Source of the DNA: a virus
Taxonomy: Duplodnaviria > Heunggongvirae > Uroviricota > Caudoviricetes
Strand: one strand, 5' to 3'
DNA length: 64,000 bases
IMG/VR virus record: IMGVR_UViG_2737471993_000002
The stretch's first letter is position 1. Each line of letters opens with the position of its first letter. The translations under genes were made by a program, and so were the position numbers. The notes under the pieces are model-generated. The model saw only the letters and a list, made by a program, of their open reading frames with translations. It searched no databases and was not told the DNA's origin. Positions 32,542 to 60,552 of this stretch are shown here, piece by piece.

Positions 32542-35500
32542 ATGAAGGCACTGATGGTTCGAACTGACTTCTCACTTGGGGAGTCGGCTCTAAAAGCAGA
32601 AAACGCGGTGAAGATTGCCAGAGAAGCTGGCTACACCGCTGTAATTTCAGCAGATAGCATGAATATTGCGAGCGTTATTCCACTACAACGTGCCGCTGGT
32701 GACGACATGGCGGTTATTTGTGGTGTGAAACTAAACATTGTTGATGATCCCACATACGAGCACCGGGCTAAACTTGCTAAAGAATCTATGAGATGTATGG
32801 AATCATTAGAGCGGGGACGTAACTACTCGTTTACCGCTCTAATTAAAAATGAGCAAGGATATCGCGACATCTGCGAACTAATGACGGCGGCCAACACACG
32901 AGAACAGTTCTACTTTGTACCGCGTCTCTCGCTCGAACAGTTGGTTTCTACATATGCCAAAGGCAACATCATCCTGCTTACTTCCGACATCGGTAGCGTG
33001 TTCCAACGCAACGATTTTGCAAAAATCATAAGCACACTGATTACAGCGGGTGGAAAAGACAACTTCTATAGTGTGGTTTATCCGCACCCTACCCCATTCT
33101 ACGACCAGATTAACGTCCGGGCGATGAAAGTCGCCAGCGCATTGAAAATAGAGCCAGTGGCGTTCTATCCCGCTTATTACGAATCGATCGACGATGCAGA
33201 CATTAAAGACATTGCGCACATGGTTACGAACAACATCAAAATCGACCAGCCGCATCGTCTGCGTATCCCCCACCAGCGAGATAACGCCGTCAATGGTCGC
33301 CGCCATCTCCTTGAGGCGCTTAAAGCCTTCTCCGTTCGCATGGATGTGCCGGTAACAGCTGCAATGGCCTCAACAACGCAGGATACCATTATCGATGCCT
33401 GCACATGGCGCTGGCATGAATTGCCGCCAGCACTGCCAAAGATGGCAGACGACGAGCCTGCAACGCTTATGAAACTGGCTGTTGCAGGGCTGCGTAAACG
33501 TCTTACCACAAAAGAGTTTGGCTACACACCACCTGCTTCTGAGAACAGGGTTTATGTTGAGCGGCTAAAGTACGAAATGGACACGCTGACTCGCCTGGGA
33601 TTTTGTGGTTACTTCCTGATGGTACGCGATCTGATGAATCATAGTCGTGAAACTGGCATTCCCGTTGGGCCTGGTCGTGGTTCCTCTGCCGGTTCTCTGG
33701 TGGCGTGGTGCATAGGCATAACCAACGTCGACCCAATCCGTCACGGTCTTCTGTTTGAGCGTTTCATCAACCCTGAGCGTCTCGACTTGCCGGATGCGGA
33801 CTTGGACTTCAGCCAGGCACGTCGCCATGAGGTGATCGAGTATCTGAATGAACGCTACGGCGAAGATTACGTTGCGGGTATTCCGAACTTCACCTACCTG
33901 GGCGCAGCCTCTGCACTACGTGATACCGCTCGTATTTATGGTGTGGAGTCCGCAGATATGGCGGTATCAAAAGAACTGAAGAACGTCGAGGATGATAGCC
34001 TTCCATTGGAAGAGCTGCGCGAACAACTGGCAAGTCTCGACAAATACGCAACAAAATATCCTGATGCATTCAATGCAGCCTGCAAGTTACAAAGCCTTAT
34101 GCGTGGCTTTGGTAGACATGCGGCAGGGATGATCGTAGCAGGTGTTCCTCTGACAGAACGTACACCGGTTGAGCGCCGTGGTGACGCGCGTTGTATCGCA
34201 TTTGACAAGCGTTACTGCGAGGCTATGGGCCTAATTAAGCTGGACGTGCTTGGCCTGGCAACTCTCGATTTGCTCGATAGTGCAAAACGCTACATAAAAG
34301 AGAACACAGGTGAAGATATCAATCTTGATGCCATTTCTCTTGAAGATCGCAAGGTGCTGGATGGTTTTGCTGCTGGGTACACTCAAGGTGTTTTCCAGCT
34401 TGAATCAGGCCCAATGCGCAAGCTGCTTAAAGATTTAGGTGGTGGAATTGAGCCAATGAGCTTTAAAACGGTCGTCGCTACAACTGCGCTCTTCCGGCCG
34501 GGGCCAATTCAATCAGGCATGTTGGATGACTATGTTTCTGTCGCCAAAGGCTTTATGACGCCGGAATCATTACACCCCGTTCTTGATGAACTTACCGCGG
34601 AAACAAATGGCGTGATTCTCTATCAGGAACAGACGATGAACGCGACTCGATTGCTTGCCGGCTTCACAATGGCTGAAGCTGACGCTGTGCGTTCCGCAAT
34701 CGGTAAGAAGAACATGGAAAAAATGAAGAGCATGGGCGAGAAGTTCATCGTTCAGGCTCAAGCTGGCTGGATAGACGTTGAGCTGGAAGATGGCACTACA
34801 CAGCGCATTCACCGTGCGGAACATTTTAAATGCGAAGACGGAACTCTGAAAACTGTCGAAGAGGCACTTGAGCACGGCGCAAAACTACCTATAAACGCAG
34901 TACGCGTTACAGCGTCACATCCAGGGCTATCAGAGATGAAAGCGAAGGAGATCTGGACCGCATTTGAGAAAAACGGAGCCTATCAGTTCAATAAATCACA
35001 CTCCGTTGCTTATTCTTTAATCAGTTATCAGTCTATGTGGCTAAAGACGCACTACCCTGCTGAGTTCTTCGCAGCTGCGCTCACCATTCTGGGCGAGGAT
35101 AAGCATCAGGGGCTGGTGAAGGATGCGCTGACCTATGGCATTCGCGTATTGCCACCAGACGTTAATGTGTCATCTAACCGAATTGAGATCCGCACACTCG
35201 AAGACGGCAGTCAGGCACTGTATGCGCCATTCTCTGCTGTGAAAGGCTGTTCTGAAAATGGTTGTCAGGCAATTATGCGTGCGCGTGAGAAAGTTGGTGG
35301 CAAATTCGAGTCAGTGGCACAATTCGATGAAGCGGTCGAGAAGCGTGCATGTAACAGTCGTGTACGCGAGTCGCTTCATAAAGTAGGGGCTTTTGCGTCA
35401 ATTGAGCCAGGCAGTCTGCCAGCAACTGATCCTGAACGACTGCGCGACCAGGCTGAGCTGATGGGCAATCTCATCATTGACGCTGTTAAAGCATCACGTC

Positions 35501-36060
35501 CGTTCGAAATGAATCCTAAGCGTTCTGCCGAAATCAACGTACTTATGACACGTATGGCGGCTGAAATGGGCTTGGGTGAGGAGTTGATACGCCCGACTAT
35601 TGGTATTAAACCCAAAATCATGATCATTCTGGACAATGCGAACGGCAATGACGCTCGTACCGGCTACTTCATGGAGAACGGATACGACGACTTTAAGGCA
35701 AAACTACTGACAGTTGGAGATCTGCGCATGGGCGATCTTTATGTCACGGGTGTTTGTAAGAAGGTTAAGGACAAAGAGAAAGACTATACCAAAGACGAGA
35801 TAGGCCAGTTCACAGACTTTATGCGGGAAGAAATTAATCTTGTACGACCAACCTACATTTTGACGTGTGGTAGTCGTTCAACCGCACTATTTAACAATAA
35901 GAGTAAACCATCAGATCTGATTGGTCGTAAGGAGTACTTCCCAGAGCTTGATGCAACCGTCTTCTACGGATTTAACCCGAATATCCTGTACTTCCGACCG
36001 GAAGAAGGAGAGCGACTGGAGGCCATTCTGGCTGATATCGCGGAGACAATAAATAAGTAA
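32542..36060 (+). CDS. dnaE: DNA polymerase III alpha-type replicative polymerase (DnaE-like, with PHP domain)
   Basis: 1172 aa; Pol-beta-like palm motifs GPGRGSSAGSLVAWCIGITNVDP and LPDADLDF; N-terminal PHP-like region. Confidence 0.85.
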   Translation: MKALMVRTDFSLGESALKAENAVKIAREAGYTAVISADSMNIASVIPLQRAAGDDMAVICGVKLNIVDDPTYEHRAKLAKESMRCMESLERGRNYSFTALIKNEQGYRDICELMTAANTREQFYFVPRLSLEQLVSTYAKGNIILLTSDIGSVFQRNDFAKIISTLITAGGKDNFYSVVYPHPTPFYDQINVRAMKVASALKIEPVAFYPAYYESIDDADIKDIAHMVTNNIKIDQPHRLRIPHQRDNAVNGRRHLLEALKAFSVRMDVPVTAAMASTTQDTIIDACTWRWHELPPALPKMADDEPATLMKLAVAGLRKRLTTKEFGYTPPASENRVYVERLKYEMDTLTRLGFCGYFLMVRDLMNHSRETGIPVGPGRGSSAGSLVAWCIGITNVDPIRHGLLFERFINPERLDLPDADLDFSQARRHEVIEYLNERYGEDYVAGIPNFTYLGAASALRDTARIYGVESADMAVSKELKNVEDDSLPLEELREQLASLDKYATKYPDAFNAACKLQSLMRGFGRHAAGMIVAGVPLTERTPVERRGDARCIAFDKRYCEAMGLIKLDVLGLATLDLLDSAKRYIKENTGEDINLDAISLEDRKVLDGFAAGYTQGVFQLESGPMRKLLKDLGGGIEPMSFKTVVATTALFRPGPIQSGMLDDYVSVAKGFMTPESLHPVLDELTAETNGVILYQEQTMNATRLLAGFTMAEADAVRSAIGKKNMEKMKSMGEKFIVQAQAGWIDVELEDGTTQRIHRAEHFKCEDGTLKTVEEALEHGAKLPINAVRVTASHPGLSEMKAKEIWTAFEKNGAYQFNKSHSVAYSLISYQSMWLKTHYPAEFFAAALTILGEDKHQGLVKDALTYGIRVLPPDVNVSSNRIEIRTLEDGSQALYAPFSAVKGCSENGCQAIMRAREKVGGKFESVAQFDEAVEKRACNSRVRESLHKVGAFASIEPGSLPATDPERLRDQAELMGNLIIDAVKASRPFEMNPKRSAEINVLMTRMAAEMGLGEELIRPTIGIKPKIMIILDNANGNDARTGYFMENGYDDFKAKLLTVGDLRMGDLYVTGVCKKVKDKEKDYTKDEIGQFTDFMREEINLVRPTYILTCGSRSTALFNNKSKPSDLIGRKEYFPELDATVFYGFNPNILYFRPEEGERLEAILADIAETINK

Positions 36061-36066
36061 TAAAGA

Positions 36067-36090
36067 AAACCCGCCTGTTGGCGGGTTTAT
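36067..36090 (+). terminator. Rho-independent terminator
   Basis: AAACCCGCC-TGTT-GGCGGGTTT immediately after the polymerase stop. Confidence 0.7.
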
Positions 36091-36363
36091 AAAGAATTAT
36101 GGCGCTTGTTGAGGAAGTCACTCCTCTTACGCACTTTGTTTTGCCATGCCGGCAGTTAGCTTCTGCCTTTGACTATTCATGCGGCAACCCCGCATTTCGC
36201 CACAATGGGCAATTCACTTTTATGGAATAAACTGGCCGTTGTGTCGATTTAATTAGCATGGCCTTACCATGCTAATTTATTCAACTTGTACAATCCTACA
36301 AATCTATCCACTCAGGCTTACACCGTCTTCGTTATTGTAGAAATGAGGATCATCAGCGTTGAA

Positions 36364-36579
36364 TCAGCTTAGAGCAACGACATTTGCTGCTGCTGGGCCT
36401 TTAGCCCCATTCTCGATAGAGAATTCGACCTGCTGGCCTTCTTCCAAAGTGCGGAAATTATTACTCTGAATTGCCGAAAAATGTACAAAAACATCTTTAC
36501 TGCCATCAGCAGGAGAAATAAAGCCAAAGCCTTTATCAGAGTTAAACCATTTTACTAAACCAGTCATTTTATTAGACAT
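36364..36579 (-). CDS. Cold-shock protein (CspA family)
   Basis: Start at internal Met ([23 protein letters not shown]..); RNP1/RNP2 motifs KGFGFI and VFVHF; 71 aa; ~270-bp upstream noncoding leader. Confidence 0.85.
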
Positions 36580-36908
36580 AGATATTACCTTCTTAATTTT
36601 GTGAGCCACATAGTGCGGCGAGAATTTGATCTGTATAGATTGGGACTTACTTAGGCACTTAAGGAGGAGACTCACGAAGAAGGGAAATCAGAAGATAACA
36701 CTGAACTGAGACTGCTTTACTAAAACTGCTTACATAAGGTCTGTCTTGCAAACCAACGATGCTATTAACGCATACCCCTTCTTTTCATGCAACCTTTATT
36801 TTTCAAAGATAACTAATTTTTGTCACCATTGGTTTAGTAAACGTTAACGAACCAGACGATGCCAGACACCTTTACAGAGAACAGATGCCCGCCAATTGGC
36901 GGGCATCA

Positions 36909-37472
36909 TTATGCGCATTTCGCAATATCTTTGCGGCGTTTAATCAGTTTCTCCGCAATTTGCTCTATTTCGTTGAAATCTTTCGAGACGCTGTTTCGAA
37001 GCGCCAGATTCCATTTACTCAAAGTTCGGGCATTTTGGACAATTTGATCGCCCTCTTTAAGTCGTCCGTTATTCATGAGCCATTCAGCCACATCAGCCCA
37101 ATCCCAGAGAGGAGACTGGCCTTTTATGCGTTGTACAGGGCAAGGGAAGTCGCCGCTTCCGCGCTTACCGTCTTTGAGCAACGCCACCGCCTGGCGAGAC
37201 AGGTCTGTCAGTTCCGCGATATCGCTTAAGCCCACAAGAGCCGAGTCGACGGATTCAACAATTGCACCGATACCGGCTGATTCAATATTGTCGACCGCAG
37301 ATGCGATAGCTGCATCAAGTGATTGTGCTTCGCGGTCAAATTCTACATAGACGGAGTTTCCATATGCGCAAATTAGCGCATCGTCACAGCCGTTTTGGTA
37401 CAGCGCGTCTTCCAGTCCTTCCGTCTCATACGATACGCCTGAGAGCGTCAGAGTGAAGTTATAAAGCGCCAT
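36909..37472 (-). CDS. Two-domain protein with C-terminal AlpA-like HTH (candidate antitoxin/regulator)
   Basis: C-terminal LTDLSRQAVALLKDGKRGSGDFPCPVQRIKGQSPLWDWADVAEWL resembles AlpA-type HTH; sits directly downstream of a small HicA-like ORF on the same strand. Confidence 0.4.
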   Translation of the reverse strand: MALYNFTLTLSGVSYETEGLEDALYQNGCDDALICAYGNSVYVEFDREAQSLDAAIASAVDNIESAGIGAIVESVDSALVGLSDIAELTDLSRQAVALLKDGKRGSGDFPCPVQRIKGQSPLWDWADVAEWLMNNGRLKEGDQIVQNARTLSKWNLALRNSVSKDFNEIEQIAEKLIKRRKDIAKCA

Positions 37473-37532
37473 AGTTTTCCTTTGAAGATAGTTGGACAGT
37501 TTCTGCAAAAGGCGGCTAATGCCGCCTTGAAA

Positions 37533-37757
37533 TCATTTACAACGATCAACCATTCGTTTGATCTGTTTGGCATGGTTTTCGGGATTACCCGGAGTCGACC
37601 ATACGCTCATTTGGTGAGTTTTGTGTTCACCTTCTGGATTACCGCATCGCAGTCTGCAAAAACAATGTGCAGCACCACCAGCTGCTACCCAGATCCAGCC
37701 TTTACTTAATGCATAGTCAATGGCTGCTTGAATATGCTTATTCGGATGTTGCTTCAT
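37533..37757 (-). CDS. Small HicA-like protein (candidate toxin)
   Basis: 74 aa; KGWIWVAAGGAAH and HKTHQMSVWSTP..ENHAKQIKRMV loosely match HicA/YcfA pattern (GW...GSHH ... vP.H). Weak. Confidence 0.3.
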   Translation of the reverse strand: MKQHPNKHIQAAIDYALSKGWIWVAAGGAAHCFCRLRCGNPEGEHKTHQMSVWSTPGNPENHAKQIKRMVDRCK

Positions 37758-37967
37758 TCGCCTCCGATAATAGTATTCTATTCACAGTGTTGACATCTGT
37801 CAACGGCGACTGAATTTCATCCGTTCATGCCACACCCCCATCCATCTCATGTATGTGACCTAAAGATGGTCAGCACAGCTTACCAAAATAAGACAACTAA
37901 TTATCTTCGGTGATCTCAATATTTTCCCCTGAACAAAGTTGACATGACGCCATAAACCCGTTCTCTG

Positions 37968-37980
37968 TTTGATATAATTG
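37968..37980 (+). promoter_or_regulatory. Extended -10 promoter element (TGaTATAAT)
   Basis: Perfect TGnTATAAT ~35 nt upstream of start at 38012; palindromic motif TATAAGTAGGAACCTATTA (37991-38009) lies between. Confidence 0.4.
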
Positions 37981-38011
37981 ATACAGATTTTATAAGTAGG
38001 AACCTATTAGA

Positions 38012-38443
38012 GTGAACACTGATATTTTTTCTAAAATCATGGCCGATCTGGAGTTCGACCGCGACAACCTTGAGGAAGTATGGCGTAAACAGCCACGGCT
38101 TTTAATGGAGTATGGGTCAAAACTAGCGCAGGCAGATCGAGATGTCGCAGAGGCAAAACTTAACCTTGAAGCTGTTGAAGCAAAGCTATACGACACAGAG
38201 CGTAAGAACTTGAGTATGAACGGCATTAAGTTCAACGAGTCTGTACTGGACGCTAAGGTTAAAACAAACCCACAGTATCTGTCTAAACGGCAGAAGTTGG
38301 ATGAAGCACGGCACATCGCAGACATATACAAACATGCTGTCGCCGCCTTTTCGCATCGCCGAGACATGATCGTTCAGGCGTCAAAGATGGCCATCGTTGA
38401 ATTAGAGCGATTAGGCTCTGAACGCTTTATTACTCCCCGTTGA
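38012..38443 (+). CDS. Hypothetical coiled-coil protein
   Basis: 143 aa (GTG start per track; ATG alternative at 38039). Confidence 0.45.
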   Translation: MNTDIFSKIMADLEFDRDNLEEVWRKQPRLLMEYGSKLAQADRDVAEAKLNLEAVEAKLYDTERKNLSMNGIKFNESVLDAKVKTNPQYLSKRQKLDEARHIADIYKHAVAAFSHRRDMIVQASKMAIVELERLGSERFITPR

Positions 38444-38447
38444 TTTT

Positions 38448-38478
38448 TGATAGATAATAAGTAAGTACTGATCTATCA
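38448..38478. promoter_or_regulatory. Palindromic operator-like motif (TGATAGATAATAAGTAAGTACTGATCTATCA)
   Basis: Outer arms TGATAGAT/ATCTATCA enclosing TAAGTA..TACT core; upstream of SSB gene. Confidence 0.45.
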
Positions 38479-38560
38479 TTTAACAGCTCGAAAGAGCCAC
38501 GAATGAACGAAAGCCCAACGCGCATAGCGCCATCGGCCAAATCACAACAAGGAGAAACAC

Positions 38561-39589
38561 ATGTCTAAGACATTACTTGATTTGCTTAACAAAACTCGTG
38601 AAGACATTGCCGCCAAACGTGGCAACAACGTTGATCTGACTCGCTTAAAAGACGGCGTCAACTATATCCGCATCTTCCCGAATAAAGACGACCCAAACGG
38701 TAAGTTCTTCCAGACTTTCGGTATGCACTACGTTAAGTATCAGAACGAGGAAGGTAAAGAAGCAACCAACGCTTATATTTGTGAGCAACATACTCACGGT
38801 CGCGCTTGTCAGCTATGCGAAATGGTTATGGAAGGTCGCGCTCGTCACAAGGGTAACAAAGCAATGGAAGAACGCATCGGTCAAATGCGTGCCACTCCTC
38901 GCTACCTGGTCAACGGCATTCTTTCTGCTCGTGAGGATTTCGCAGATGCTGAGAAATGCCAGTTAATCGAGCTGCCGTCTACTGTATTCGATGATATCTG
39001 CAAAGCAATCACCGAAGACATCGCTGATGATATCGGCAATCCACTGAGCAAAGAGGAAGGCTACGCATTCCTGATTAAACGTACTGGCTCTGGTCGCGAT
39101 ACCAAATATGACGTCTCGCCTAAGCGTAAAGTCTACAAAGGCGATATCGAAGATAAATTCTGGAACACCCAGCATGATCTGATCGCATACGCAAATCAGG
39201 CTGATGAAACTCGTCTTCTGTCGACAGTTCGCACTATGGGTCGTCTGATTGGCATCGCTGCACCAACTGCCGCAGCATCTGCACCAGCAATTTCCTCAAC
39301 CGCGAAAACATCGGCTGCGGCACTACCTGGATTTGGCTCTGTCACTGGTCATACAGAAGGAGCGACGGCTGTAGCAACCGCGCACACACCGGCTTCTGAA
39401 CCAACCAGTCTGGTTGATGAAGAAATCCTCCGTGCCGTTGAAACTGAATTTAAACCAGAGGCAAGTTCCGCTGCCGTTGCCGTATCAGTCAAAGAGTCTG
39501 AAGCAGTCGCAGCGACATCTGTAGCAACCGCATCTGCGACGGAAGATGAAGGTCTGGATGACCTACTGAGAGAGCTGGACTCTCTGTAA
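38561..39589 (+). CDS. Single-stranded DNA-binding protein (T4 gp32-like) with acidic C-terminal tail
   Basis: N-terminal basic region, IRIFPNKDDPNGKFF, zinc-ligand pattern C-x2-H-x4-C-x2-C (CEQHTHGRACQLC), Ala/Ser linker and acidic C-terminus EDEGLDDLLRELDSL. Confidence 0.6.
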   Translation: MSKTLLDLLNKTREDIAAKRGNNVDLTRLKDGVNYIRIFPNKDDPNGKFFQTFGMHYVKYQNEEGKEATNAYICEQHTHGRACQLCEMVMEGRARHKGNKAMEERIGQMRATPRYLVNGILSAREDFADAEKCQLIELPSTVFDDICKAITEDIADDIGNPLSKEEGYAFLIKRTGSGRDTKYDVSPKRKVYKGDIEDKFWNTQHDLIAYANQADETRLLSTVRTMGRLIGIAAPTAAASAPAISSTAKTSAAALPGFGSVTGHTEGATAVATAHTPASEPTSLVDEEILRAVETEFKPEASSAAVAVSVKESEAVAATSVATASATEDEGLDDLLRELDSL

Positions 39590-39605
39590 TCCCATTACGT
39601 GACCA

Positions 39606-39635: not shown

Positions 39636-39649
39636 GAAGGAATGTACCG

Positions 39650-52185: not shown

Positions 52186-54501
52186 ATGATAAGCATCGTA
52201 AAACGTAACGGCCAAACAGAGCCGTTATCCGAAGAAAAATACAACCGCGTCGTAATGTATGGCGTAGAAGGCATTCGTGGTGTAAGCGCATCCGCTGTAG
52301 CAATGGGAGCTGCGGCCAGCATTTTTGATGGGATTACCACCAGCCAGTTGCATGAGGCTTTGGTTAAATCTGCCGCTGATTTGATCTCACCAGAAGCACC
52401 AAATTACTCACAGGTGGCTGCCCGCCTGAACATTTTTAAAATCCGCAAAGATGCCTTCGGTCGTTACGACTATCCGAACTTCTACCAACACATTGTCAAG
52501 AACGTTAACAAGGGCGTTTATGACAAGGATTTGCTGACACATTATTCGTTTGAAGAGATCGAAGAACTCGGCAATTACATTAAGCCGAAACGTGACGATC
52601 TTTTTGGCTATGCAGCTACGGTGCAGTTGCAAAGCAAATACCTCGTTCAAAACCGTGTTACTGGTGAGATTCATGAGGGGCCGCAACATATCTATATGCT
52701 GGTAGGCATGTGTCTGTTCCAGAATTGGGAAGACGACTGCGCTGGCAAAACACGTATGGAGATGGTCAAAGGTTTCTATGACGTTACAAGTACGTTCAAA
52801 CTGTCTCTGCCCACACCAATCATGGCCGGCGTCCGTACTCCAACCCGTCAGTTCTCCAGTTGTGTGCTGATTGAGTCTGGCGATAGTCTGAAAGGGATTA
52901 GTGCAGCTTCAGCCGCAATTATCGACTACGTTTCACGTCGTGCTGGAATTGGTATTGGTTTTGGCCGTATCCGTGCGCTGGGCAGCGAGATCCGCAATGG
53001 TGAAGCCACCCATACCGGAGTTATTCCATTCCTGAAGCATTTCCAGACGGCTGTTAAATCTTGTTCGCAAGGTGGTGTTCGTGGTGGCGCAGCAACAGCG
53101 TTTTACCCGATCTGGCATCTTGAAGTTGAAAGTCTGCTGGTGGTGAAAAATAACCGTGGTATTGATGAAAACCGCGTTCGCCATCTTGATTACGGCGTCA
53201 TGAGTAACCGTCTAATGTACCGTCGACTCGTCAGAAGCGAGAACATCACTCTGTTCAGCCCGCATGATGTGCCTGATATGTACGAAGCCTTCTTCACAGA
53301 CCAGGAGCTGTTTGAAAAGCTGTACCATAAATACGAAGCCGATGATTCAATTCGCAAGAAGCCAGTACCTGCCATTGAGCTGTTCTCATCTCTGATGCAG
53401 GAACGAGCGTCCACGGGCCGAATTTATATTGCGAACGTAGATCATATTAACGAGCATGGCGCTTTCATTCCTGCTCTTGCACCTGTTCGCCAGTCAAACC
53501 TGTGCATGGAGATCACTCTACCCACTCGTCCACTGGCATTTACCGACGACCCGAACGGTGAGATCGCGCTATGCACTTTATCCGCTTTTAACCTCGGAGC
53601 CATCCGTTCACTGGAGTCTCTTAAAGAGGTGGCGTTCTATGCCGTTGCTGCACTGGATTCGTTACTGGATTATCAAGACTATCCGATGGAGGCAGCCGAA
53701 GTGCCTGCCAAAGCTCGTCGTAGCTTGGGAATTGGTGTAACCAACTTTGCTTATTACCTGGCAAAGAATGGCGTTCGTTATTCTGATACCGCTGGCAATA
53801 AACTGGTGCATGAAACGTTCGAAGCTATCCAGTATTACCTTCTTGATGCCAGCTGCCGACTTGCTGAAGCAAAAGGTGAGTGTGACTGGTTTGAGCAGAC
53901 CAAGTACGCAATTGGTCAGTTGCCGATCGACCATTACCGTTCTTCATTAGACGAAAGTGGCGAAACCAACTTTGAGTTAAAGATGCCGTGGGAAGAACTG
54001 CGTGAACGTATTGCAAAATACGGCCTTCGCAACTCCACACTGACGGCACAAATGCCATGCGAGACTTCCAGCCAGATCACTAATTCCACCAACGGCATCG
54101 AACCGCCTCGTGGCCCGGTGTCGGTGAAATCTTCTAAGGACGGCATCGTTAAGATGGTCGTGCCTGAGTTTGAAAAACTGAAGGAACAGTATGAATACCT
54201 GTGGGATATGCCGGACAACCGCGGCTATCTGACAAAGGTGGCGATCATCCAGAAGTTCTTTGACCAGGCTATTTCAGCCAATACCAACTATGACCCTTCT
54301 CGCTTTGAAGGCGATAAAGTCCCAATGATGACGCTACTGTCAGATTTGCTTCTCGCCTACAAGATGGGAGTTAAAACGCTTTACTACCACAACACCAGAG
54401 ATGGGGCAGGAAAGCGTGATGACGACGAACCGCAGAATCCACTGACGCAAGCTGTAGCCGTCGAGCCAGAAGATGAGTGCGACGGAGCCTGCAAAATCTG
54501 A
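52186..54501 (+). CDS. nrdA: Ribonucleotide reductase class Ia large subunit
   Basis: 771 aa, N-terminal ATP-cone, active-site region SNLCMEITLP, C-terminal Cys pair (CDGACKI). Confidence 0.9.
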   Translation: MISIVKRNGQTEPLSEEKYNRVVMYGVEGIRGVSASAVAMGAAASIFDGITTSQLHEALVKSAADLISPEAPNYSQVAARLNIFKIRKDAFGRYDYPNFYQHIVKNVNKGVYDKDLLTHYSFEEIEELGNYIKPKRDDLFGYAATVQLQSKYLVQNRVTGEIHEGPQHIYMLVGMCLFQNWEDDCAGKTRMEMVKGFYDVTSTFKLSLPTPIMAGVRTPTRQFSSCVLIESGDSLKGISAASAAIIDYVSRRAGIGIGFGRIRALGSEIRNGEATHTGVIPFLKHFQTAVKSCSQGGVRGGAATAFYPIWHLEVESLLVVKNNRGIDENRVRHLDYGVMSNRLMYRRLVRSENITLFSPHDVPDMYEAFFTDQELFEKLYHKYEADDSIRKKPVPAIELFSSLMQERASTGRIYIANVDHINEHGAFIPALAPVRQSNLCMEITLPTRPLAFTDDPNGEIALCTLSAFNLGAIRSLESLKEVAFYAVAALDSLLDYQDYPMEAAEVPAKARRSLGIGVTNFAYYLAKNGVRYSDTAGNKLVHETFEAIQYYLLDASCRLAEAKGECDWFEQTKYAIGQLPIDHYRSSLDESGETNFELKMPWEELRERIAKYGLRNSTLTAQMPCETSSQITNSTNGIEPPRGPVSVKSSKDGIVKMVVPEFEKLKEQYEYLWDMPDNRGYLTKVAIIQKFFDQAISANTNYDPSRFEGDKVPMMTLLSDLLLAYKMGVKTLYYHNTRDGAGKRDDDEPQNPLTQAVAVEPEDECDGACKI

Positions 54502-54607
54502 CATATGGTGGGGGATATCCCCACCTTCTCTTTGATTTGTAAGCCTTGTTTAAACACATAAGATAACAACTTGTTTAAACGCACCAAAAAAGAAAAAGGA
54601 AAAACAC

Positions 54608-55750
54608 ATGTCATATTCAACGTTCCGTTTGGGTGCTAATGATGCAACCAAAGAGCCTATGTTCCTCGGACAATCTGTCAACGTGGCACGTTACGATCAG
54701 CAAAAATACCGTGATTTTGAAAAGTTGATTGAACGTCAATTGTCTTTCTTCTGGCGGCCGGAAGAAGTTGATATTTCGAGCGATCGTATCGACTTCAACA
54801 CGAAGCTGCGGGACCACGAACGTCACATTTTTCTGAGCAATCTCCGTTATCAAACGTTACTCGATTCAGTTCAGGGACGTAGCCCAAATGCAACGCTGCT
54901 GCCGCTTATCTCTATTCCTGAACTGGAAACGTGGGTTGAAACATGGTCTTTCTCTGAGACTATCCATAGCCGCAGCTACACCCACATTATTCGTGGCATG
55001 GTGGACGATCCGAGCATTGTTTTTGACGGTATTGTTACGGATGAAGAAATCATCAACCGAGCGATCAGTATCTCTGCTGAATATGACAGGCTTTATGGGA
55101 TGACCTGCGAGCGCCAGTCGTTAGGTGAGAAAGAGTTTGAACGTCTGTACGTAAATGAATATGGCTGGGAGCCATACCCTTTGCATCGTCAGCTTTTCCG
55201 CACGTTGGTGTCCATTAATGCGCTTGAGGCGATCCGTTTCTATGTAAGTTTTGCATGTACGTTTGCCTTTGGCGAACGGAAGTTGCTTGAGGGTAACACC
55301 AAAATTATGCGCTTTATTGCCCGTGATGAAGCTCTGCATTGCGAAGGAACTGAACGCATGATCCGCTTCATGCGTACCGGTCGCGAAGGTTTATTGTGGA
55401 AAGAGATTGCTGCTGATGAAGAAAACGTCATTTACGACACCATGAAATCAGTCGCCGAACAAGAAATGAACTGGGCAGACTATCTCTTCAAAGACGGTTC
55501 GATGATTGGTTTAAACGCGGATATTCTGAAGACCTATGTAAAATACCGAACCAATCTGGCTATGAATCGTCTTGGCCTGAAGGCTTTATTTCCAGAAGTT
55601 ACCACTGATCCGCTGGTCTGGATGAACAAGTGGTTGTTAACCGACACACTGCAAATTGCACCACAAGAGGCAGAGCAAAGCACATATCTGGTAGGTCAGA
55701 TCGATTCTACCGTGGATAAGGCTTCTCTAAGCCAGTTTGCAGACCTGTAA
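54608..55750 (+). CDS. nrdB: Ribonucleotide reductase class Ia small subunit
   Basis: 380 aa; di-iron ligand motifs ([17 protein letters not shown]) and C-terminal tail typical of NrdB. Confidence 0.9.
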
Positions 55751-55827
55751 ACCGATACAAAGCATTATGTGGCCTGGCAACGCTGGGCCACAATGGATCA
55801 CAAGAATTAAGAAGGAACAAAACTAGC

Positions 55828-56697
55828 ATGAACTTTACCAAACTGACTGACCACCTGAAACTTGCCACCGATCGACTCATTGGATTTAAGCCAGAACCAT
55901 ATGAGTTGCATGAAGGCCATGGTGTAGCCACTGAAAGTATTTACAAGATGGTCGATCAGTTTCATGAACTCTTCCAGCATCCGAGACGCGTTATGCCGAC
56001 ACCAGAGCTGCTTCGTCTCCGTGCAAGCCTGATTCATGAAGAAGCTGTAGTGGAAGGTATTCCAGCTGCAATGAATGGGGATATTGAGCAACTGCTGGAT
56101 GCAATGGCCGACTTTTTATACGTTGGTGTTGGTACGATGGTCGCCATCAAAGGTGGTATTTCTACCGGCATGACCTATTACACGCAGGAACAGAGCATTG
56201 ATCGCTTTATGCAGACAATTTTTGTGCCCGGTAACACTGTTTTCGATGATATGGCAATGCCATTTCAGGAAGCTCGTGAGGCGTCATGTATGCTCGAAGA
56301 GCTGGCAGATAAACTTGAGAACAAGACTGTTAAGGATTCTGAGCTGATTCAGGAACTGCGCCGTGTCATGAACAAAATCTATGTGGCGTGCATGATGACC
56401 TATCGACTGGCTGATTTCCTCGGTATCAATGTAGTCGAGCTGGTTGGCGAAATTCATCGGTCTAACATGACAAAATTATGGCCTGCTGATGTAGAGGAAC
56501 GTCGCCAGGCTGTGGCCAACTGCAAATACGACTCTTCAGACCTGGGATTTCGCCATGCTGATGGTACCGATAAGATGATCGGTTTTCGAATTTCCGATGG
56601 AAAGATTCTGAAGTCTCCAACCTATAGTGATGTCGATTTATCCTCCTTTGTTGAGCAAGCTAAAGCCTCAGCAATGTACGGAATGATCAAAAAATAA
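55828..56697 (+). CDS. MazG-like / all-alpha NTP pyrophosphohydrolase-like protein (uncertain)
   Basis: EEAVVEGIPAAMNGDIEQLLDAMADFLYV resembles the EExxE...E..D MazG metal-binding helices; lies in nucleotide-metabolism block. Confidence 0.4.
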   Translation: MNFTKLTDHLKLATDRLIGFKPEPYELHEGHGVATESIYKMVDQFHELFQHPRRVMPTPELLRLRASLIHEEAVVEGIPAAMNGDIEQLLDAMADFLYVGVGTMVAIKGGISTGMTYYTQEQSIDRFMQTIFVPGNTVFDDMAMPFQEAREASCMLEELADKLENKTVKDSELIQELRRVMNKIYVACMMTYRLADFLGINVVELVGEIHRSNMTKLWPADVEERRQAVANCKYDSSDLGFRHADGTDKMIGFRISDGKILKSPTYSDVDLSSFVEQAKASAMYGMIKK

Positions 56698-56836
56698 TTG
56701 TAGGTAGTTATCTATCTATGTATATTGTGTTGGCGCGTTAAATTCCTGAAACAACTATTCGTTTTTGGTGGCCTATGGCCACCATTTTTTTATCTATCTG
56801 GCCTTGTTCTCTCAATAAATGTAAACTCACGTAATG

Positions 56837-56854
56837 AATAAGTGGTTACTTATC
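56837..56854. promoter_or_regulatory. Palindromic operator-like motif (AATAAGTGGTTACTTATC)
   Basis: Motif-family member immediately upstream of thyA; track's GTG start at 56842 falls inside it. Confidence 0.4.
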
Positions 56855-56868
56855 TTTGTGAGGTTTTT

Positions 56869-57972
56869 GTGTCACTCCTTTTGAATCGTGAGCATACGAA
56901 CGGTCAGGTAACAAACGCATCGTATGCAAAAGTTATTGAGACGGTGCTTAAAAGCGGCGTGCAGGCTGATGATCGCACAGGCACTGGTACTTTAAGCACC
57001 TGCTACGTTCCCTCTTACTACATGCTTACTGGTGGGACTGTGCCGCTTATTTCTGGAAAGGCGGTAAATCTTAAGCCACTGCTTGTCGAACTTGAGTGGT
57101 ATCTGAAAGGCACGGGCAACATCCAATTTCTCAAGGATAACGGCGTTAAGATTTGGGATGCATGGGCCGATGAGAATGGCGATTTGGGGCCGGTTTACGG
57201 TAAGCAGTGGCGTCGATGGGAAGATACCCGCATCGTGAGCCATAGTGAATATCTGAGCAAGATCGCTACTTTCCGTGAACGCGGGTACAAAGTCGAGGGA
57301 TACCTGGGTATCAGTGAAGATCGCGTAGTGCTGTCCCGTGAAATCGATCAGCTACAGCGTATTGTCGATACACTGCGCACGAACCCTACCGATCGTCGCA
57401 TCATGCTTAACGCATGGAACGTAGGCGAGCTTGAGGATATGAAACTGCCACCTTGCCACTTTGTCTTCTCTTTGTGGAGTCGTGAGCTGGATTTTGAAAC
57501 CCGTTTAACGATGGCAACTGACATTGGTCTTCAACACAGTCGCCTCGGTTACGAGTCTATCTACACCAAGATGCTATACGATCTGGAGATGGACGGCAGT
57601 GTTACTGAAGCTGAACTGGATGAACTTGGAATCCCCAAACGCATCCTCAACTCCTGCCTCGTACAGCGTAGCGTAGACACTTTTGTTGGTATGCCATTCA
57701 ATATTGCTGGCTATGGCATTCTCACTCATTTTCTCGCGAAGATTACGGGTCACATGGCCGGTGCATTTGTGCATTTTGGCTTTGACGTGCATTTGTACAA
57801 CAACCACATGGAAGGTGTGTGTGAGCTAATGAAACGACAGGCTCCAGAGCATTCAGATCCGGTCGTTATTTTCCCTCATGAATGGTCAGAGTTGGATGAT
57901 TTCAAATGGGACGAGGTTTTAATTCTTGGCTATGACCCTCTATCGTGGATCAAGGTTCCAGTGGCGGTGTGA
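56869..57972 (+). CDS. thyA: Thymidylate synthase (ThyA) with two in-frame insertions
   Basis: Start set at GTG 56869 (GAGG SD 5 nt upstream). Motifs DRTGTGT, GDLGPVYGKQWRRW, LPPCH, MPFNIA; insertions after QWRRW and after PPCH compared with E. coli ThyA as recalled. Confidence 0.85.
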   Translation: MSLLLNREHTNGQVTNASYAKVIETVLKSGVQADDRTGTGTLSTCYVPSYYMLTGGTVPLISGKAVNLKPLLVELEWYLKGTGNIQFLKDNGVKIWDAWADENGDLGPVYGKQWRRWEDTRIVSHSEYLSKIATFRERGYKVEGYLGISEDRVVLSREIDQLQRIVDTLRTNPTDRRIMLNAWNVGELEDMKLPPCHFVFSLWSRELDFETRLTMATDIGLQHSRLGYESIYTKMLYDLEMDGSVTEAELDELGIPKRILNSCLVQRSVDTFVGMPFNIAGYGILTHFLAKITGHMAGAFVHFGFDVHLYNNHMEGVCELMKRQAPEHSDPVVIFPHEWSELDDFKWDEVLILGYDPLSWIKVPVAV

Positions 57973-57973
57973 T

Positions 57974-58387
57974 ATGGCAAGAGGTATGTATGTCTTATGC
58001 GAAATTGAAGGTGTGCTGGCAAATGCCAGCCATCGTAAATCAGTATCTGACGCGGATGCAGGCCAGCTCATTGCCGGTGATGAACTCATTTTCCCCACCA
58101 GCCGTATGTTGCGTGGTTTTGCTCGCTCAGGGGCTGAAGTGGTGCTTATCAGTAGCCGCTCTGAAACTCTTGAAGCGCCAACTAAACGATGGCTGAAAGA
58201 TTTTGGCGTTGATTATGACTGGCTTCATCTCGTACCGAATGGCACCAGTTATGAGAAGCATATTAAGCGCACATTAGCGGAGCATAAAGGCGATCTGCTT
58301 ATCGCTGCGCTGGTGCACGATCCTCGACTCCGTGCCGCTTTAGCCGACTCTCACCATCGACCGGTCATCTATGAGGTGAGCAAATGA
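57974..58387 (+). CDS. Hypothetical protein, possible HAD-type 5'(3')-deoxyribonucleotidase-like
   Basis: ATG at 57974 immediately after thyA stop; N-terminal VLCEIEGVLAN loosely resembles the DMDGVL motif of NT5C-type nucleotidases with Asp replaced by Glu. Confidence 0.3.
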   Translation: MARGMYVLCEIEGVLANASHRKSVSDADAGQLIAGDELIFPTSRMLRGFARSGAEVVLISSRSETLEAPTKRWLKDFGVDYDWLHLVPNGTSYEKHIKRTLAEHKGDLLIAALVHDPRLRAALADSHHRPVIYEVSK

Positions 58388-58860
58388 AGATGATCGCTGC
58401 TGTTGGCCGTAACTATGAGATCGGCATAGCGAATGAACTCCCCTGGCGTTGTTCTACCGATCTGAAGCTATTTAAGAGACTCACCAAAAACGCCACTGTC
58501 GTTATGGGGCGTAAAACGATGGAAAGTCTCAAACGCCCTCTTCCAGAGCGTCATAACCTCGTTTTGACGCGCTCTCATGGCTTTGTACCAAATGGATTCT
58601 ACCCTGCTGGTGTGGATGATGTGTTGCGATTACCAGAGCCTGTGTGGGTGATTGGCGGGGAACAAATTTACTCGCTATTCATGCCGCATGTTGAAGAGAT
58701 TTGGCTCTCCCACATCGGCGTTGATGTGCCAAACGCCGATGCATTCTTCCCGGCAAGCATGATGCGTAATTTAGGCTTTGTGCCTGTTGAAACAGCTTAT
58801 ACCCAACGAGCCAGCGAGGAAGAGCCTGGCTTTTCGCAGATCGTATACAGAAGGTCGTAA
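58384..58860 (+). CDS. folA: Dihydrofolate reductase
   Basis: MIAAVGRNYEIGIANELPW...VVMGRKT..S...PLP.R.N.VLT matches DHFR N-terminal signature; 158 aa. Confidence 0.8.
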   Translation: MKMIAAVGRNYEIGIANELPWRCSTDLKLFKRLTKNATVVMGRKTMESLKRPLPERHNLVLTRSHGFVPNGFYPAGVDDVLRLPEPVWVIGGEQIYSLFMPHVEEIWLSHIGVDVPNADAFFPASMMRNLGFVPVETAYTQRASEEEPGFSQIVYRRS

Positions 58861-59504
58861 TGGATTACCGGATTGGGATCACTGGTGCTCAGGGCAGTGG
58901 GAAAACAACCCTGGCTAAATATATCGACAAACATTACGGAATCCCTTACGTGGATGCTGGTGTCGGAAGTTTGATGAGCCGCCTCGGTGTTCGAGTAGGT
59001 GATTCTATGCCTCTATATGAGCGGCTTCAGATTCAAATGGAAATAGCAAAGCATATAGAGCTACTTACGCGTGGTGTTGAAGGCTTTGTTATCGATCGCA
59101 CACCTGCTGATGTTATGGCCTACACGTTGGATTTGGTCGGCCATACAAATGAAGATCGGTGTATTGAGTTAGCCCTCGATATCGAAAAGTTTTGCCACAA
59201 AACTGCTATTTCAAACTTTAACGCCATTGCTGGCTTACGCCCGGGAGTCGCTCTCTCAGAGCGAGATTACTTGCGATCACAACGAGCATCATTAGACCGT
59301 CTGTATGTCGCTCGTATTGATGCGTTGATGTGCGGGGAACTGACAAAAATTCACCTGCATCCGCAAAGGGGAGATCTGCAAACCTTCGTCGTTTCCAACC
59401 GATATCGCACGGTTGAAGCAAGAGCCAGATCAGTGATGAGAATGCTAGATAACGCTGTAGAAAAGATAGAAAACCGGTTCTGTGGCCGAGTGACCGTTCA
59501 TTAG
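58860..59504 (+). CDS. P-loop nucleotide kinase (deoxynucleoside monophosphate kinase-like)
   Basis: Walker A GITGAQGSGKTT at N-terminus; 214 aa; in nucleotide-metabolism block. Confidence 0.45.
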   Translation: MDYRIGITGAQGSGKTTLAKYIDKHYGIPYVDAGVGSLMSRLGVRVGDSMPLYERLQIQMEIAKHIELLTRGVEGFVIDRTPADVMAYTLDLVGHTNEDRCIELALDIEKFCHKTAISNFNAIAGLRPGVALSERDYLRSQRASLDRLYVARIDALMCGELTKIHLHPQRGDLQTFVVSNRYRTVEARARSVMRMLDNAVEKIENRFCGRVTVH

Positions 59505-59565: not shown

Positions 59566-59985
59566 ATGTTTAGTGAAATGTTGCTTGAAGATGAACTGGA
59601 TCGGAAAACAACAGAGGCTTTGATTCGTGTAGCGGACGAACATTCCCGGTCGCTTATGAGCGATCGAGAGGCTCGTCTGGCTATTCGTGCCATATTCGAA
59701 ACTGCGCAGGGGCTTGTTGGTACACAAGTGGGTGAAGCCATTAACATCGCCATGTCTCAGTTCAGTGAAGGCAGTAAAAAGCCTCTGTTTCCTATGCATT
59801 TGATGCTGGCTGGTGGCACGGTGCTTTATATCTCTGTTTGTCTGGATAGCAACCAAATCAATATTCTCAACACTGTGTCAGGTAAGTGGAAAGATCCGAT
59901 TGTCTGTGAAACCAGTGAAGAAACTTTGAAAAAAGCGGCTCAATTTGTACGTAGCGCACTACTTAAGGGCGCTAAGAAGTTGTAA
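59566..59985 (+). CDS. Hypothetical protein
   Basis: 139-aa ORF. Confidence 0.45.
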   Translation: MFSEMLLEDELDRKTTEALIRVADEHSRSLMSDREARLAIRAIFETAQGLVGTQVGEAINIAMSQFSEGSKKPLFPMHLMLAGGTVLYISVCLDSNQINILNTVSGKWKDPIVCETSEETLKKAAQFVRSALLKGAKKL

Positions 59986-59994
59986 GGAGTTCTG

Positions 59995-60552
59995 ATGACA
60001 ACGATTGTTGCAGGCATCGATATCGAGTCTACGGGACTGGATTTCCTTGCTGGTCATAAAATTATTGAAATCGCAATTACCCGCTATGAACTGGAGACAC
60101 AGAGACATATTGATAGTCTGGAGATGCGTTTTAACCCTCGCAGAAACATAGATCCGAAAGCTCAAGCCGTTCATGGCATTTCATTGGAACAGCTCGCAGC
60201 TGAACCTTTGTTGTCAAATCATGCCAGCGAAATTGGCGCTTATATGGGGGCATGTAGTGTGTGGGTTGCTCATAACGGCGAAGCATTTGATATACCATTT
60301 ATTCGACACGAGTTTTCAGGGTATGGAGTAAGACTGCCAGAAGTTCCTGTTATAGATACTATGTTATCGGGATTGTGGGCCACAGAAGACGGTAAACGTC
60401 CCCGCCTTGAAGAGTTGGCCTTCTCTCTTGGCTTTATATACGATCATGCCAAAGCACATAGTGCCTTATATGACACAAACTTAATGATGCAATGCTTCTT
60501 TAAGGCACGTAATAAGTACGGATTTTTTAAATTACCCTCTGAAATTGTGTAA
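59995..60552 (+). CDS. DnaQ-like 3'-5' exonuclease (DEDDh, epsilon-like)
   Basis: Exo I GIDIESTG, Exo II HNGEAFDIPF, Exo III HSALYDTNL; 185 aa. Confidence 0.75.
   Translation: MTTIVAGIDIESTGLDFLAGHKIIEIAITRYELETQRHIDSLEMRFNPRRNIDPKAQAVHGISLEQLAAEPLLSNHASEIGAYMGACSVWVAHNGEAFDIPFIRHEFSGYGVRLPEVPVIDTMLSGLWATEDGKRPRLEELAFSLGFIYDHAKAHSALYDTNLMMQCFFKARNKYGFFKLPSEIV

Follow-up and report, generated by a model that had tools for sequence, protein, structure and literature searches.

Replication module of an SSU5-type phage-plasmid: a phage-specific DnaE, a candidate trans-acting proofreading exonuclease and an embedded P1-type replicon

Overview

The 64,000-nucleotide stretch of DNA analyzed here (the window) is an SSU5-type phage-plasmid of Escherichia coli, a well-known kind of element, and the region under study is likely to be its lytic replication, recombination and nucleotide-supply module, into which a separate P1-type plasmid replicon has been inserted, with proofreading provided in trans and a switch of machinery between the plasmid and lytic modes. 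At the DNA level the window and phage Cyrano (pLF82) are 97.9% identical, many E. coli plasmids match it at 99% identity, and SSU5 shares around 80% DNA identity with it over the region. The replication gene set is not new: the public records of Cyrano and SSU5 already annotate it, and the Cyrano annotation yields the same gene list as the window. The combination is common to SSU5-like phage-plasmids and related phages of ~110 kb, and is thus a conserved replication module and not a peculiarity of this element. The original prediction described a mixed replisome, and all of its gene calls were recovered at their positions by Pfam or PHROG matches; homology searches kept every gene in its proposed family and reassigned none to unrelated ones. 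Genes and protein domains are on the forward strand of the window unless otherwise stated.

The DnaE polymerase

The polymerase (32542-36060; 1172 aa) is a DnaE-type enzyme of the C family, with Pfam matches to PHP, DNA_pol3_alpha (1.3e-73), finger and HHH_6. Its earlier description as 'bacterial-type' is correct at the superfamily level only: in NCBIfam the protein exceeds the cut-off of the superfamily model TIGR00594 alone and falls below all equivalog cut-offs, and it has no PHP metal site, no OB fold and no tau-binding domain but a UDG-fold domain instead. It belongs to a phage-specific clade; residues 4-956 align to E. coli alpha with 30% identity, and the alignment ends at residue 956. 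The polymerase center is intact, with the catalytic Asp positions invariant in all 48 clade members, while the PHP metal site is gone. Alignment of the degenerate PHP domain (aa 6-176; 32557-33069) to Mycobacterium tuberculosis DnaE1 reveals the loss of eight of the nine ligand positions and an Asp-to-Glu change at the other, and the eight positions tested by E. coli numbering are replaced across the 48 clade members.

An insertion of ~41 residues (aa 745-785; 34774-34896) has no counterpart in the aligned E. coli alpha and occurs in the enterobacterial subgroup alone, being absent from the non-enterobacterial clade members that were aligned. In the Klebsiella relatives L009 and L010, an HNH homing-endonuclease gene (NUMOD4/HNH_3 ORF) splits dnaE at the end of this insertion. 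The only peptide of DnaE resembling a clamp motif, QAELM (aa 970), was rejected as such; its counterpart in E. coli alpha is a structural helix instead of the QADMF clamp motif, and in the predicted structure the peptide is modeled as a confident helix. Directly upstream of dnaE in the window, as in Cyrano, nickie and RHEph10, lies a pair of CobT-like (28922-31030) and CobS/AAA_5-like (31126-32361) genes, recognized by matches of their Klebsiella orthologues to Pfam CobT and AAA_5.

A candidate proofreading exonuclease

Which exonuclease proofreads for DnaE, one of two reasonable questions raised by the original prediction, can be addressed through the stand-alone DEDDh (DnaQ-superfamily) 3'-5' exonuclease of 185 aa at 59995-60552 (Pfam RNase_T, 6e-22). 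Its best solved relative is E. coli epsilon (7.9e-11) and its best PHROG is family 192, 'DNA polymerase exonuclease subunit' (3.9e-51), with no other exonuclease family matched among PHROGs at E ≤ 1e-3. Residues D9, E11, H155 and D160 are invariant in 112 homologues, and D99, which lies outside that count, corresponds by alignment to E. coli epsilon to the Asp of the Exo II motif AFD. No other DEDDh exonuclease was found in the window or the rest of Cyrano, and the protein accompanies this type of DnaE in 31 of 31 phage records. Together, the single DEDDh exonuclease, its invariant catalytic residues and this co-occurrence suggest that the DnaQ-like protein is most likely the trans proofreader for DnaE. 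The PHP domain of the polymerase is probably incapable of proofreading, in which case the DnaQ-like protein would supply this activity in trans.

The earlier label 'epsilon-like' also stands at the superfamily level but goes no further, as the protein scores below every NCBIfam epsilon cut-off and has neither the alpha-binding C-terminal segment of E. coli epsilon nor its QTSMAF-type clamp motif. All 112 homologues are 172-204 aa long and without the epsilon tail. The exonuclease would therefore have to dock differently, and either a conserved C-terminal motif, G176-[FL]-F-x-[LI]-P181, or a 139-aa protein whose gene precedes that of the exonuclease by 9 nt (59566-59985; PHROG 5373), or both, may serve. 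Reciprocal similarity of the 139-aa protein to upstream ORFs in Stenotrophomonas ANB28, Pseudomonas nickie and a Halomonas contig is weak; a neighbor of this kind is detectable, weakly, in four of the seven lineages sampled, with no similarity in the other three.

The same features bear on a different assignment, in which the protein would be a nucleotide-salvage or DNA/RNA-end-processing exonuclease and DnaE would go unproofread or use host epsilon. The exonuclease gene lies 23.9 kb from dnaE, in keeping with the ~24 kb originally given, and ends a cluster of RNR, ThyX, DHFR and kinase genes both in the window and in the nickie, ANB28, Acinetobacter and Halomonas relatives; a role in salvage or repair would be compatible with this position as well as with the missing epsilon tail and the failure to reach any epsilon cut-off. 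Co-occurrence of the exonuclease and DnaE within one phage lineage can, in sequence comparisons such as these, reflect common descent alone. We nevertheless regard this assignment as unlikely: both the best PHROG and the closest solved structure are polymerase-associated exonucleases, no genome with this PHP-dead type of DnaE lacks the gene, and the E. coli PHP domain, to which host epsilon binds, shares only ~20% identity with that of the phage.

The UDG-fold domain of DnaE

Where OB and tau-binding domains would be expected, the C-terminus of DnaE (aa ~992-1172; 35515-36057) carries a family-4 UDG-fold domain. An active glycosylase that searches for uracil in the template before the polymerase reaches it, as in SP15-like PolA-UDG fusions, seems quite improbable here. 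Motif A reads LDNAN in the window, with loss of the Pro; the uracil-recognizing Asn is Gly (T, G, S or A across the clade); the motif B His is Asn; and the Fe-S cysteines are missing. The UDG domains of N4-like PolA enzymes are inactivated in a similar way. The domain of the window polymerase would most likely be a DNA-handling or processivity element and not a uracil glycosylase.

Other replication, recombination and nucleotide genes

The DnaB-like replicative helicase (15447-16787; Pfam DnaB_C, 8.7e-13; NCBIfam phage_DnaB, 8.3e-14, below cut-off; 'DNA Helicase' in Cyrano) and the ATP-dependent DNA ligase (21276-22598; DNA_ligase_A_M, 1.5e-12) both exceed their Pfam cut-offs, and the predicted DnaG/Toprim-type primase (16797-18050; 'DNA Primase' in Cyrano) matches Toprim_2 marginally, at 22.3 bits against a cut-off of 22.1, with a weak Pfam DNAG_N match and an NCBIfam dnaG match (7.2e-9), each below its cut-off. 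Pfam matches were also obtained for the T4 gp32-like ssDNA-binding protein (38561-39589; gp32, 1.7e-66), which has a Cys/His cluster (C74, H77/H79, C83, C86) and an acidic C-terminal tail, for the 5'-3' exonuclease/flap endonuclease (39599-40594; 5_3_exonuc_N, 2.2e-24; 5_3_exonuc, 6.9e-12), for the RecA-family recombinase (40863-41936; RecA, 2.2e-42; NCBIfam recA, 6.9e-45, below cut-off), and for the predicted pair of Mre11/SbcD-like nuclease (47569-48654; Metallophos, 8.4e-10) and Rad50/SbcC-like ATPase (48884-50800; AAA_23 and SMC_N, with weak SbcC_Walker_B). The window recA is uninterrupted (357 aa), while the Cyrano CDS is 2340 nt. The RuvC-like Holliday-junction resolvase (51543-52112) was identified through PHROG 159 (4e-57) and has no Pfam match. 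A UvsY-like recombination mediator (38012-38443) is weakly indicated by PHROG 231 (1.9e-4) and by the Cyrano annotation; its stronger match is PHROG 2058 (5.7e-69), labeled 'unknown function' in the database. An ASCH-domain protein of the conserved phage module (46670-47314; PHROG 2105) is annotated as ASCH in Cyrano and RHEph10. The nucleotide-metabolism cluster (52186-59504) comprises, by Cyrano annotation, RNR alpha and beta, MazG-like, ThyX, polynucleotide kinase, DHFR and an AAA_28 kinase-like protein (58860-59504; Pfam AAA_28).

The plasmid replicon and the two modes of replication

The predicted RepA/iteron origin was also found, in the form of a Rep3/RepFIB-P1-type initiator gene, repA, on the reverse strand (45254-46348; Rep3_N, 5e-9) flanked by 15 copies of the iteron core ACCGCTGACAGCATAC in a repeat search. 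The longest repA ORF extends to 46468 and crosses iterons, so that the ATG at 46348 is the likely start. Window RepA shares 43.5% identity with that of P1/P7 and 48% with that of Cyrano and SSU5, and the allele is 99% identical to those of CMS-2020a and PhiR41_1. An oriR-like origin (46364-46591, reverse strand) contains iterons at 46364-46471 (five by eye, four by repeat search), six GATC sites at 46511-46569, at a density ~25 times the window average, and tandem DnaA boxes, TTATTCACA and TATCCACA, at 46575-46591; eleven further iterons downstream of repA (44717-45255) are laid out like P1 incA. DnaA boxes, GATC cluster, five iterons, repA and eleven iterons constitute a P1-type module. It sits inside the phage replication module in enterobacterial members only: syntenic Pseudomonas and Rhizobium phages have the same module order without the repA, iterons, DnaA boxes and GATC sites, and no RepA homologue was detected in the nickie/RHEph10 group or other non-enterobacterial relatives.

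The second question raised by the original prediction was whether the plasmid and lytic modes use different machinery. In the LF82 lysogen transcriptome, which derives from a 98%-identical relative with a different RepA allele (48% identity), values are 133 for RepA and 96 for the repressor, compared with 10.1 for DnaE, 9.1 for gp32, 10.7 for the DnaQ-like protein and 10.2 for RecA, and with 7-8 for terminase and 7.4 for capsid (PMC9928086, table S1). RepA is thus expressed in the LF82 lysogen, with DnaE, gp32 and the DnaQ-like protein at the level of silent virion genes; given also the P1-type replicon, the two modes probably use different machinery. It is highly improbable that one phage-encoded DnaE replisome serves both modes and that RepA does no more than recruit it, even though one element encodes all the components and the helicase gene, at 21 in the lysogen, is slightly above the structural genes: the origin layout is that of P1 oriR, DnaA boxes and Dam sites included, P1 RepA replication needs DnaA and the replisome of the host, expression of DnaE, gp32 and the exonuclease is at silent-gene level in lysogens, which carry 5.5 copies per cell, and the replicon is exchangeable among otherwise near-identical elements and missing from relatives that retain the replisome. 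With separate machineries, the P1-type origin would drive replication in lysogeny by means of RepA together with the DnaA and replisome of the host; induction would bring a switch to the phage's own helicase, primase, DnaE, exonuclease, gp32, flap endonuclease and ligase, and T4-style recombination functions (RecA, UvsY-like, Mre11/Rad50 and RuvC) would then assist.

Comparison with known systems

Like the E. coli Pol III core (alpha-epsilon-theta), the window system pairs a C-family polymerase, whose domains include palm, fingers and HhH, with a separate DEDDh exonuclease. It differs in the UDG-fold domain that stands where alpha has its OB and tau-binding domains and in the lost PHP ligands; moreover, no theta homologue was found, and a clamp and clamp loader are not encoded in the phage, none being annotated in Cyrano and no DnaN homologue detected. 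UDG-fold modules are likewise joined to replicative polymerases in the phage PolA-UDG fusions (SPO1-, SP15- and N4-like) and in the vaccinia E9-A20-D4 holoenzyme, but the window polymerase is of the C family and its UDG fold is C-terminal; with non-canonical catalytic and uracil-recognition residues, it is closer to the inactive N4-like than to the SP15-like case.

The replicon shares with that of P1 (oriR/incC - repA - incA) its DnaA boxes, GATC cluster, five iterons, repA and downstream iteron array, whereas P1 has nine downstream iterons to the eleven of the window, the iteron sequences are not the same, and the window replicon lies within the genome of an SSU5-type siphophage. In both gene content and gene order the window is the same as SSU5, Cyrano (pLF82) and the pHCM2- and pMT1-type phage-plasmids. 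The nickie (Pseudomonas)/RHEph10 (Rhizobium) group retains the same order of ligase, CobT, CobS, DnaE(UDG), FEN, RecA, ASCH, Mre11, Rad50 and nucleotide genes with the DnaQ-like exonuclease, at 26-30% identity to the window in the DnaE C-terminal domain and 39-45% in the exonuclease.

Identity and gene content of the replication module

Over the 20 kb around the polymerase and recombination genes, identity is 97.9% with Escherichia phage Cyrano, which is the phage-plasmid pLF82 from E. coli LF82, and ~80% with Salmonella phage SSU5; the region has matches in more than 900 plasmid records, 21 of these at an identity of at least 99%. The Cyrano record annotates a helicase, primase, ligase, Pol III alpha, UvsY, gp32-like SSB, exonuclease and RecA, and also RepA, SbcD, SbcC, RuvC, nucleotide genes and an 'Exonuclease, PolIII subunit epsilon'. 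The original prediction of a mixed replisome, with a DnaE polymerase and a separate DnaQ-like exonuclease alongside T4-like components, is therefore correct but not new, and the region belongs to a phage-plasmid family that is very common and whose replication module has been annotated before. To this annotation, comparison with relatives adds three features that we infer: the disappearance of the PHP metal site from DnaE throughout its clade, the inheritance of DnaE strictly together with a tail-less exonuclease that bears a conserved peptide at its C-terminus, and a P1-type origin that is a swappable insertion.

The predicted gene set was confirmed, by Pfam for most genes and by PHROG alone for RuvC, and the interpretation placed on it is supported. 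The Pol III alpha-type polymerase (32542-36060, + strand) matches the Pfam PHP, DNA_pol3_alpha (1.3e-73), finger (8.5e-44) and HHH_6 domains, and the stand-alone epsilon-like exonuclease of 185 residues (59995-60552, + strand) matches RNase_T above the cut-off (6e-22). Pfam also identifies the RecA-like recombinase (RecA, 2.2e-42), the flap endonuclease (both 5'-3' exonuclease domains), the ligase (ATP-dependent ligase domain), the DnaB-like helicase (DnaB_C) and, marginally, the primase (Toprim_2, 22.3 bits with the cut-off at 22.1). Mre11 and Rad50 are encoded by adjacent genes with matches to Metallophos and to AAA_23 and SMC_N, respectively, together with a weak match of the latter to SbcC_Walker_B; the pair has the make-up of SbcCD and T4 gp46/47, a metallophosphatase nuclease next to an SMC-like ATPase with Walker A and B. 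The RuvC-like resolvase was recovered solely through PHROG 159 (4e-57), and PHROG matching points tentatively to a UvsY-like protein. The gp32-like protein (Pfam gp32, 1.7e-66) has the features of a gp32-type SSB, namely the DNA-binding core, a putative zinc-ligand cluster in which C74, H77/H79, C83 and C86 are the candidate ligands, and an acidic C-terminal tail (...EDEGLDDLLRELDSL), the last two read from its sequence.

A DnaE polymerase with a degenerate PHP site and a UDG-fold domain

Alignment of the 1172-residue DnaE with E. coli alpha by BLASTP gave 30% identity and stopped at residue 956 (E. coli 893), just past the HhH domain. D418, D420 and the aspartate of IKLDVLGL align with the E. 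coli catalytic aspartates D401, D403 and D555, and the palm catalytic aspartates are invariant in all 48 full-length members of the clade, the phage-specific DnaE group with a C-terminal UDG-fold domain. Pfam still recognizes the PHP fold, but without its metal ligands: the N-terminus has LMVRTDFSLGES in place of the HLRVHSDYSMIDG of E. coli; alignment with M. tuberculosis DnaE1 shows the loss of eight of the nine ligand positions and a change from Asp to Glu at the remaining one; and the eight ligand positions tested on E. coli numbering are replaced across the whole clade. Judged from the sequences, this clade-wide replacement excludes an intrinsic PHP exonuclease activity in DnaE. At the family level, the protein passes the NCBIfam superfamily model TIGR00594 alone (626 bits against a cut-off of 434) and fails every DnaE equivalog cut-off, including that of PRK05673 (674 bits against 1002).

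No OB fold was matched by Pfam in the C-terminus of DnaE, where the OB and tau-binding domains are absent and a UDG fold is found instead. In its final ~215 residues the protein matches the part of PHROG 17 (PolA) that lies ahead of the PolA exonuclease and, weakly, Pfam UDG. A HMMER scan of 1.84 billion representatives with this domain returned 140 homologous clusters, nearly all with the match at the C-terminus of ~1,100-residue proteins or in ~390-residue C-terminal pieces; a profile built from 30 diverse copies of the domain retrieved family-4 UDGs among solved structures at 3.6e-22, and the UDG alpha/beta fold was found in the domain. The canonical UDG residues are altered. Motif A (GE[AG]PG; GEAPG) has become D-x-P in the clade and LDNAN in the window DnaE, the uracil-recognizing Asn is replaced by T, G, S or A in the clade and by Gly in the window (VTGV), the His of motif B (HP[AS]) is an Asn in the window (FNPN), and the Fe-S CxxC that many clade members retain is missing from the window protein, which scores 29.5 bits with NCBIfam UDG_fam4 against a cut-off of 125. 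Because these residues are altered, we favor a role for the domain in DNA handling or processivity. In PolA-UDG fusions the UDG has been proposed as a built-in processivity factor (PMC3201878), and a scan for template uracil ahead of the polymerase has experimental support (bioRxiv 10.1101/2025.03.26.645540). The DnaE-UDG architecture is not new to the literature: it was reported for Yersinia and Salmonella plasmids (Timinskas et al., 2014), and the fusion is named in the note of the record for Rhizobium phage RHEph10.

A tail-less exonuclease co-inherited with DnaE

The original prediction asked which exonuclease proofreads for DnaE. The DEDDh residues of the DnaQ-like protein are D9, E11, D99, H155 and D160; the four residues counted for invariance (D9, E11, H155 and D160) are conserved in 112 of 112 homologues, and D99, outside that count, corresponds to the aspartate in the Exo II motif AFD by alignment to E. 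coli epsilon, the closest solved relative (7.9e-11). The protein ends at residue 185, its 112 homologues span 172-204 residues, and the C-terminal segment with which E. coli epsilon binds the alpha PHP domain (residues ~190-243) is absent from all of them. It misses the NCBIfam epsilon cut-offs of PRK05711 (71 bits against 196), dnaQ_proteo (67 against 223) and TIGR00573 (56 against 71.5). No Q-type clamp motif (QTSMAF in E. coli) lies past the exonuclease domain; a conserved C-terminal peptide, G176-[FL]-F-x-[LI]-P181, is at most ~2 residues from the position of the clamp motif in E. coli epsilon. Neither phmmer nor an HMM scan revealed a second DnaQ-like gene among all ORFs of 50 or more residues in the window and the remainder of Cyrano.

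In a tblastn survey of a phage collection, the closest homologues of the exonuclease were present in all 31 records with the DnaE-UDG domain, which come from Escherichia, Salmonella, Klebsiella, Pseudomonas, Rhizobium, Stenotrophomonas and Xanthomonas phages; identity in the non-enterobacterial records is 39-45%. In linear records with both matches on one strand, the exonuclease lies ~25-37 kb downstream of dnaE, and the 24-kb gap in the window therefore reflects an arrangement conserved within a single phage lineage, with genomes of roughly 84-122 kb. This co-inheritance is in keeping with a functional pair and is no proof of one. The rival explanation, in which the exonuclease would act as a salvage or repair enzyme, stays alive because its gene is always the last in a nucleotide-metabolism cluster.

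A 139-residue ORF (59566-59985, + strand; PHROG 5373) lies 9 nt upstream of the exonuclease gene and shows weak reciprocal similarity to upstream ORFs in Stenotrophomonas ANB28, Pseudomonas phage nickie and a Halomonas contig. Three other lineages (Acinetobacter, a JGI contig and RHEph10) showed none, which leaves the idea that the exonuclease universally partners this protein unsupported there. Its single-sequence AlphaFold2 model (pLDDT 47) is too low in confidence for use, and a profile search of solved structures matched designed helical proteins only.

The Cyrano annotation includes neither a clamp nor a clamp loader, and phmmer and an HMM scan detected no DnaN homologue among the ORFs of 50 or more residues in the window and the remainder of Cyrano, a search that very distant clamps would escape. 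The sole peptide in DnaE resembling a clamp motif is QAELM at residue 970, whose Q is present in 90 of 96 homologues. We make no claim for it as a clamp motif: it aligns to the E. coli helix RAALMNSL (895-903), not to the internal beta-clamp motif QADMF (920-924), and is modelled with high pLDDT as a confident helix.

One possible, if doubtful, reading of the SSU5/nickie/RHEph10 lineage is an uncharacterized Pol III-like core, comprising a PHP-dead DnaE, a catalytically altered UDG-fold module for template handling or processivity, and a tail-less exonuclease recruited through G[FL]FxLP, which would replace the tether between the epsilon tail and the PHP domain. The peptide might then be directed at the beta clamp of the host, at DnaE, or at the product of the small gene just upstream.

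A P1-type replicon as a probable insertion in an older phage module

Read along the repA strand, putative tandem DnaA boxes (46575-46591) come first, followed by six GATC sites in 59 bp (46511-46569), iterons at 46364-46471 (five by eye, four by repeat search), repA (45254-46348, - strand; probable start 46348) and eleven further iterons (44717-45255). This layout is that of P1 oriR/incC-repA-incA. The predicted RepA was verified by a Rep3_N match and is 43.5% identical to P1/P7 RepA; a Rep3 initiator, flanking iterons, putative DnaA boxes and a Dam-site cluster together point to a P1-type iteron replicon. Another two tandem TGTCCACA octamers resembling DnaA boxes (46341-46356, - strand) lie over the probable start codon of repA, with the iterons on one side and the CDS on the other. 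Replication by P1-type RepA depends on host DnaA and the host replisome.

RepA homologues are confined to enterobacterial elements. Phages nickie and RHEph10 share the order ligase, CobT, CobS, DnaE, FEN, RecA, ASCH, Mre11, Rad50 and have no RepA between RecA and ASCH; the replicon therefore entered a phage module older than itself. The window RepA is 99% identical to those of CMS-2020a and PhiR41_1, 87% identical to those of Klebsiella phage-plasmids and 48% identical to those of Cyrano and SSU5, and the flanks (32000-52000) are ~98% identical to Cyrano. As far as these comparisons reach, the replicon is exchangeable between elements by replicon swap.

In the LF82 lysogen, which holds 5.5 plasmid copies per cell, normalized read counts are 133 for RepA and 96 for the repressor, compared with 10.1 for DnaE, 9.1 for gp32, 6.6 for FEN, 10.2 for RecA, 10.7 for the DnaQ-like protein, 10.6 for the primase, 21 for the helicase, 7-8 for the terminase and 7.4 for the capsid (PMC9928086). 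The phage replisome genes are thus expressed at the level of silent virion genes during plasmid maintenance. The original prediction also raised whether plasmid and lytic modes use different machinery, and, taken with the known host dependence of P1-type RepA, the evidence supports this.

Insertions, fusions and neighboring genes

In many Klebsiella relatives (for example locus L009, 4001-8253) dnaE is split into ORFs of 787 and 389 residues by a NUMOD4/HNH_3 homing-endonuclease gene; the 787-residue piece represents 1105 member sequences, and C-terminal pieces of ~390 residues are also common in distant clade members. The split point is the end of a 41-residue insertion specific to the enterobacterial subgroup (window 34774-34896). 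A group I intron or intein was rejected, as the HNH ORF abuts both pieces (4-nt overlap, 22-nt gap) and the pieces add up to full length (787 + 389 residues); the arrangement looks like a free-standing homing-endonuclease insertion.

The window recA (40863-41936) is uninterrupted and encodes 357 residues. The Cyrano RecA CDS is 2340 nt long and a LAGLIDADG homing endonuclease is annotated at the RecA region in many plasmid relatives, which suggests an intein or endonuclease insertion in relatives. Three proteins from database relatives (P0243, P0247 and P0264) combine DnaE N-terminal domains and a RecA domain in one ORF, implying deletions that fused dnaE to recA with loss of gp32 and FEN.

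Immediately upstream of dnaE is a CobT-like/CobS-like pair (VWA and MoxR-type AAA_5; 28922-32361), which occupies this place in Cyrano, Klebsiella elements, nickie and RHEph10 as well. A HicA/HicB toxin-antitoxin pair (36897-37781, - strand) is encoded on the opposite strand, after dnaE and before the UvsY-like gene, and is strongly expressed in the lysogen, at 141 and 294 against ~10 for its neighbors. A 567-residue KAP-family P-loop NTPase (12781-14484) lies in the lowest-GC part of the window (36.5%); the matching Cyrano interval holds hypothetical proteins only, with no such product named, and the gene may be accessory or defense cargo. Four tRNA genes (Asn, Tyr, Thr and Ser) lie at 24188-24745, of which Cyrano annotates three (Asn, Thr and Ser).

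Discussion

SSU5-type phage-plasmids are very common in Enterobacteriaceae, with the more than 900 plasmid records that match this region, and also carry resistance genes. Their lysogenic maintenance probably depends on the swappable P1-type replicon and the host replisome, and the phage DnaE machinery appears to be reserved for lytic growth; such a division between maintenance and lytic machinery aids the reading of copy-number changes, incompatibility typing and induction behavior. The DnaE variant, whose architecture has been noted before, may serve as a natural experiment on a C-family polymerase that would work with neither a PHP metal site, an OB fold, a tau contact nor a tethered epsilon; E. 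coli alpha, by contrast, has the PHP metal ligands, the OB fold and the tau-binding domain that the window DnaE lacks.
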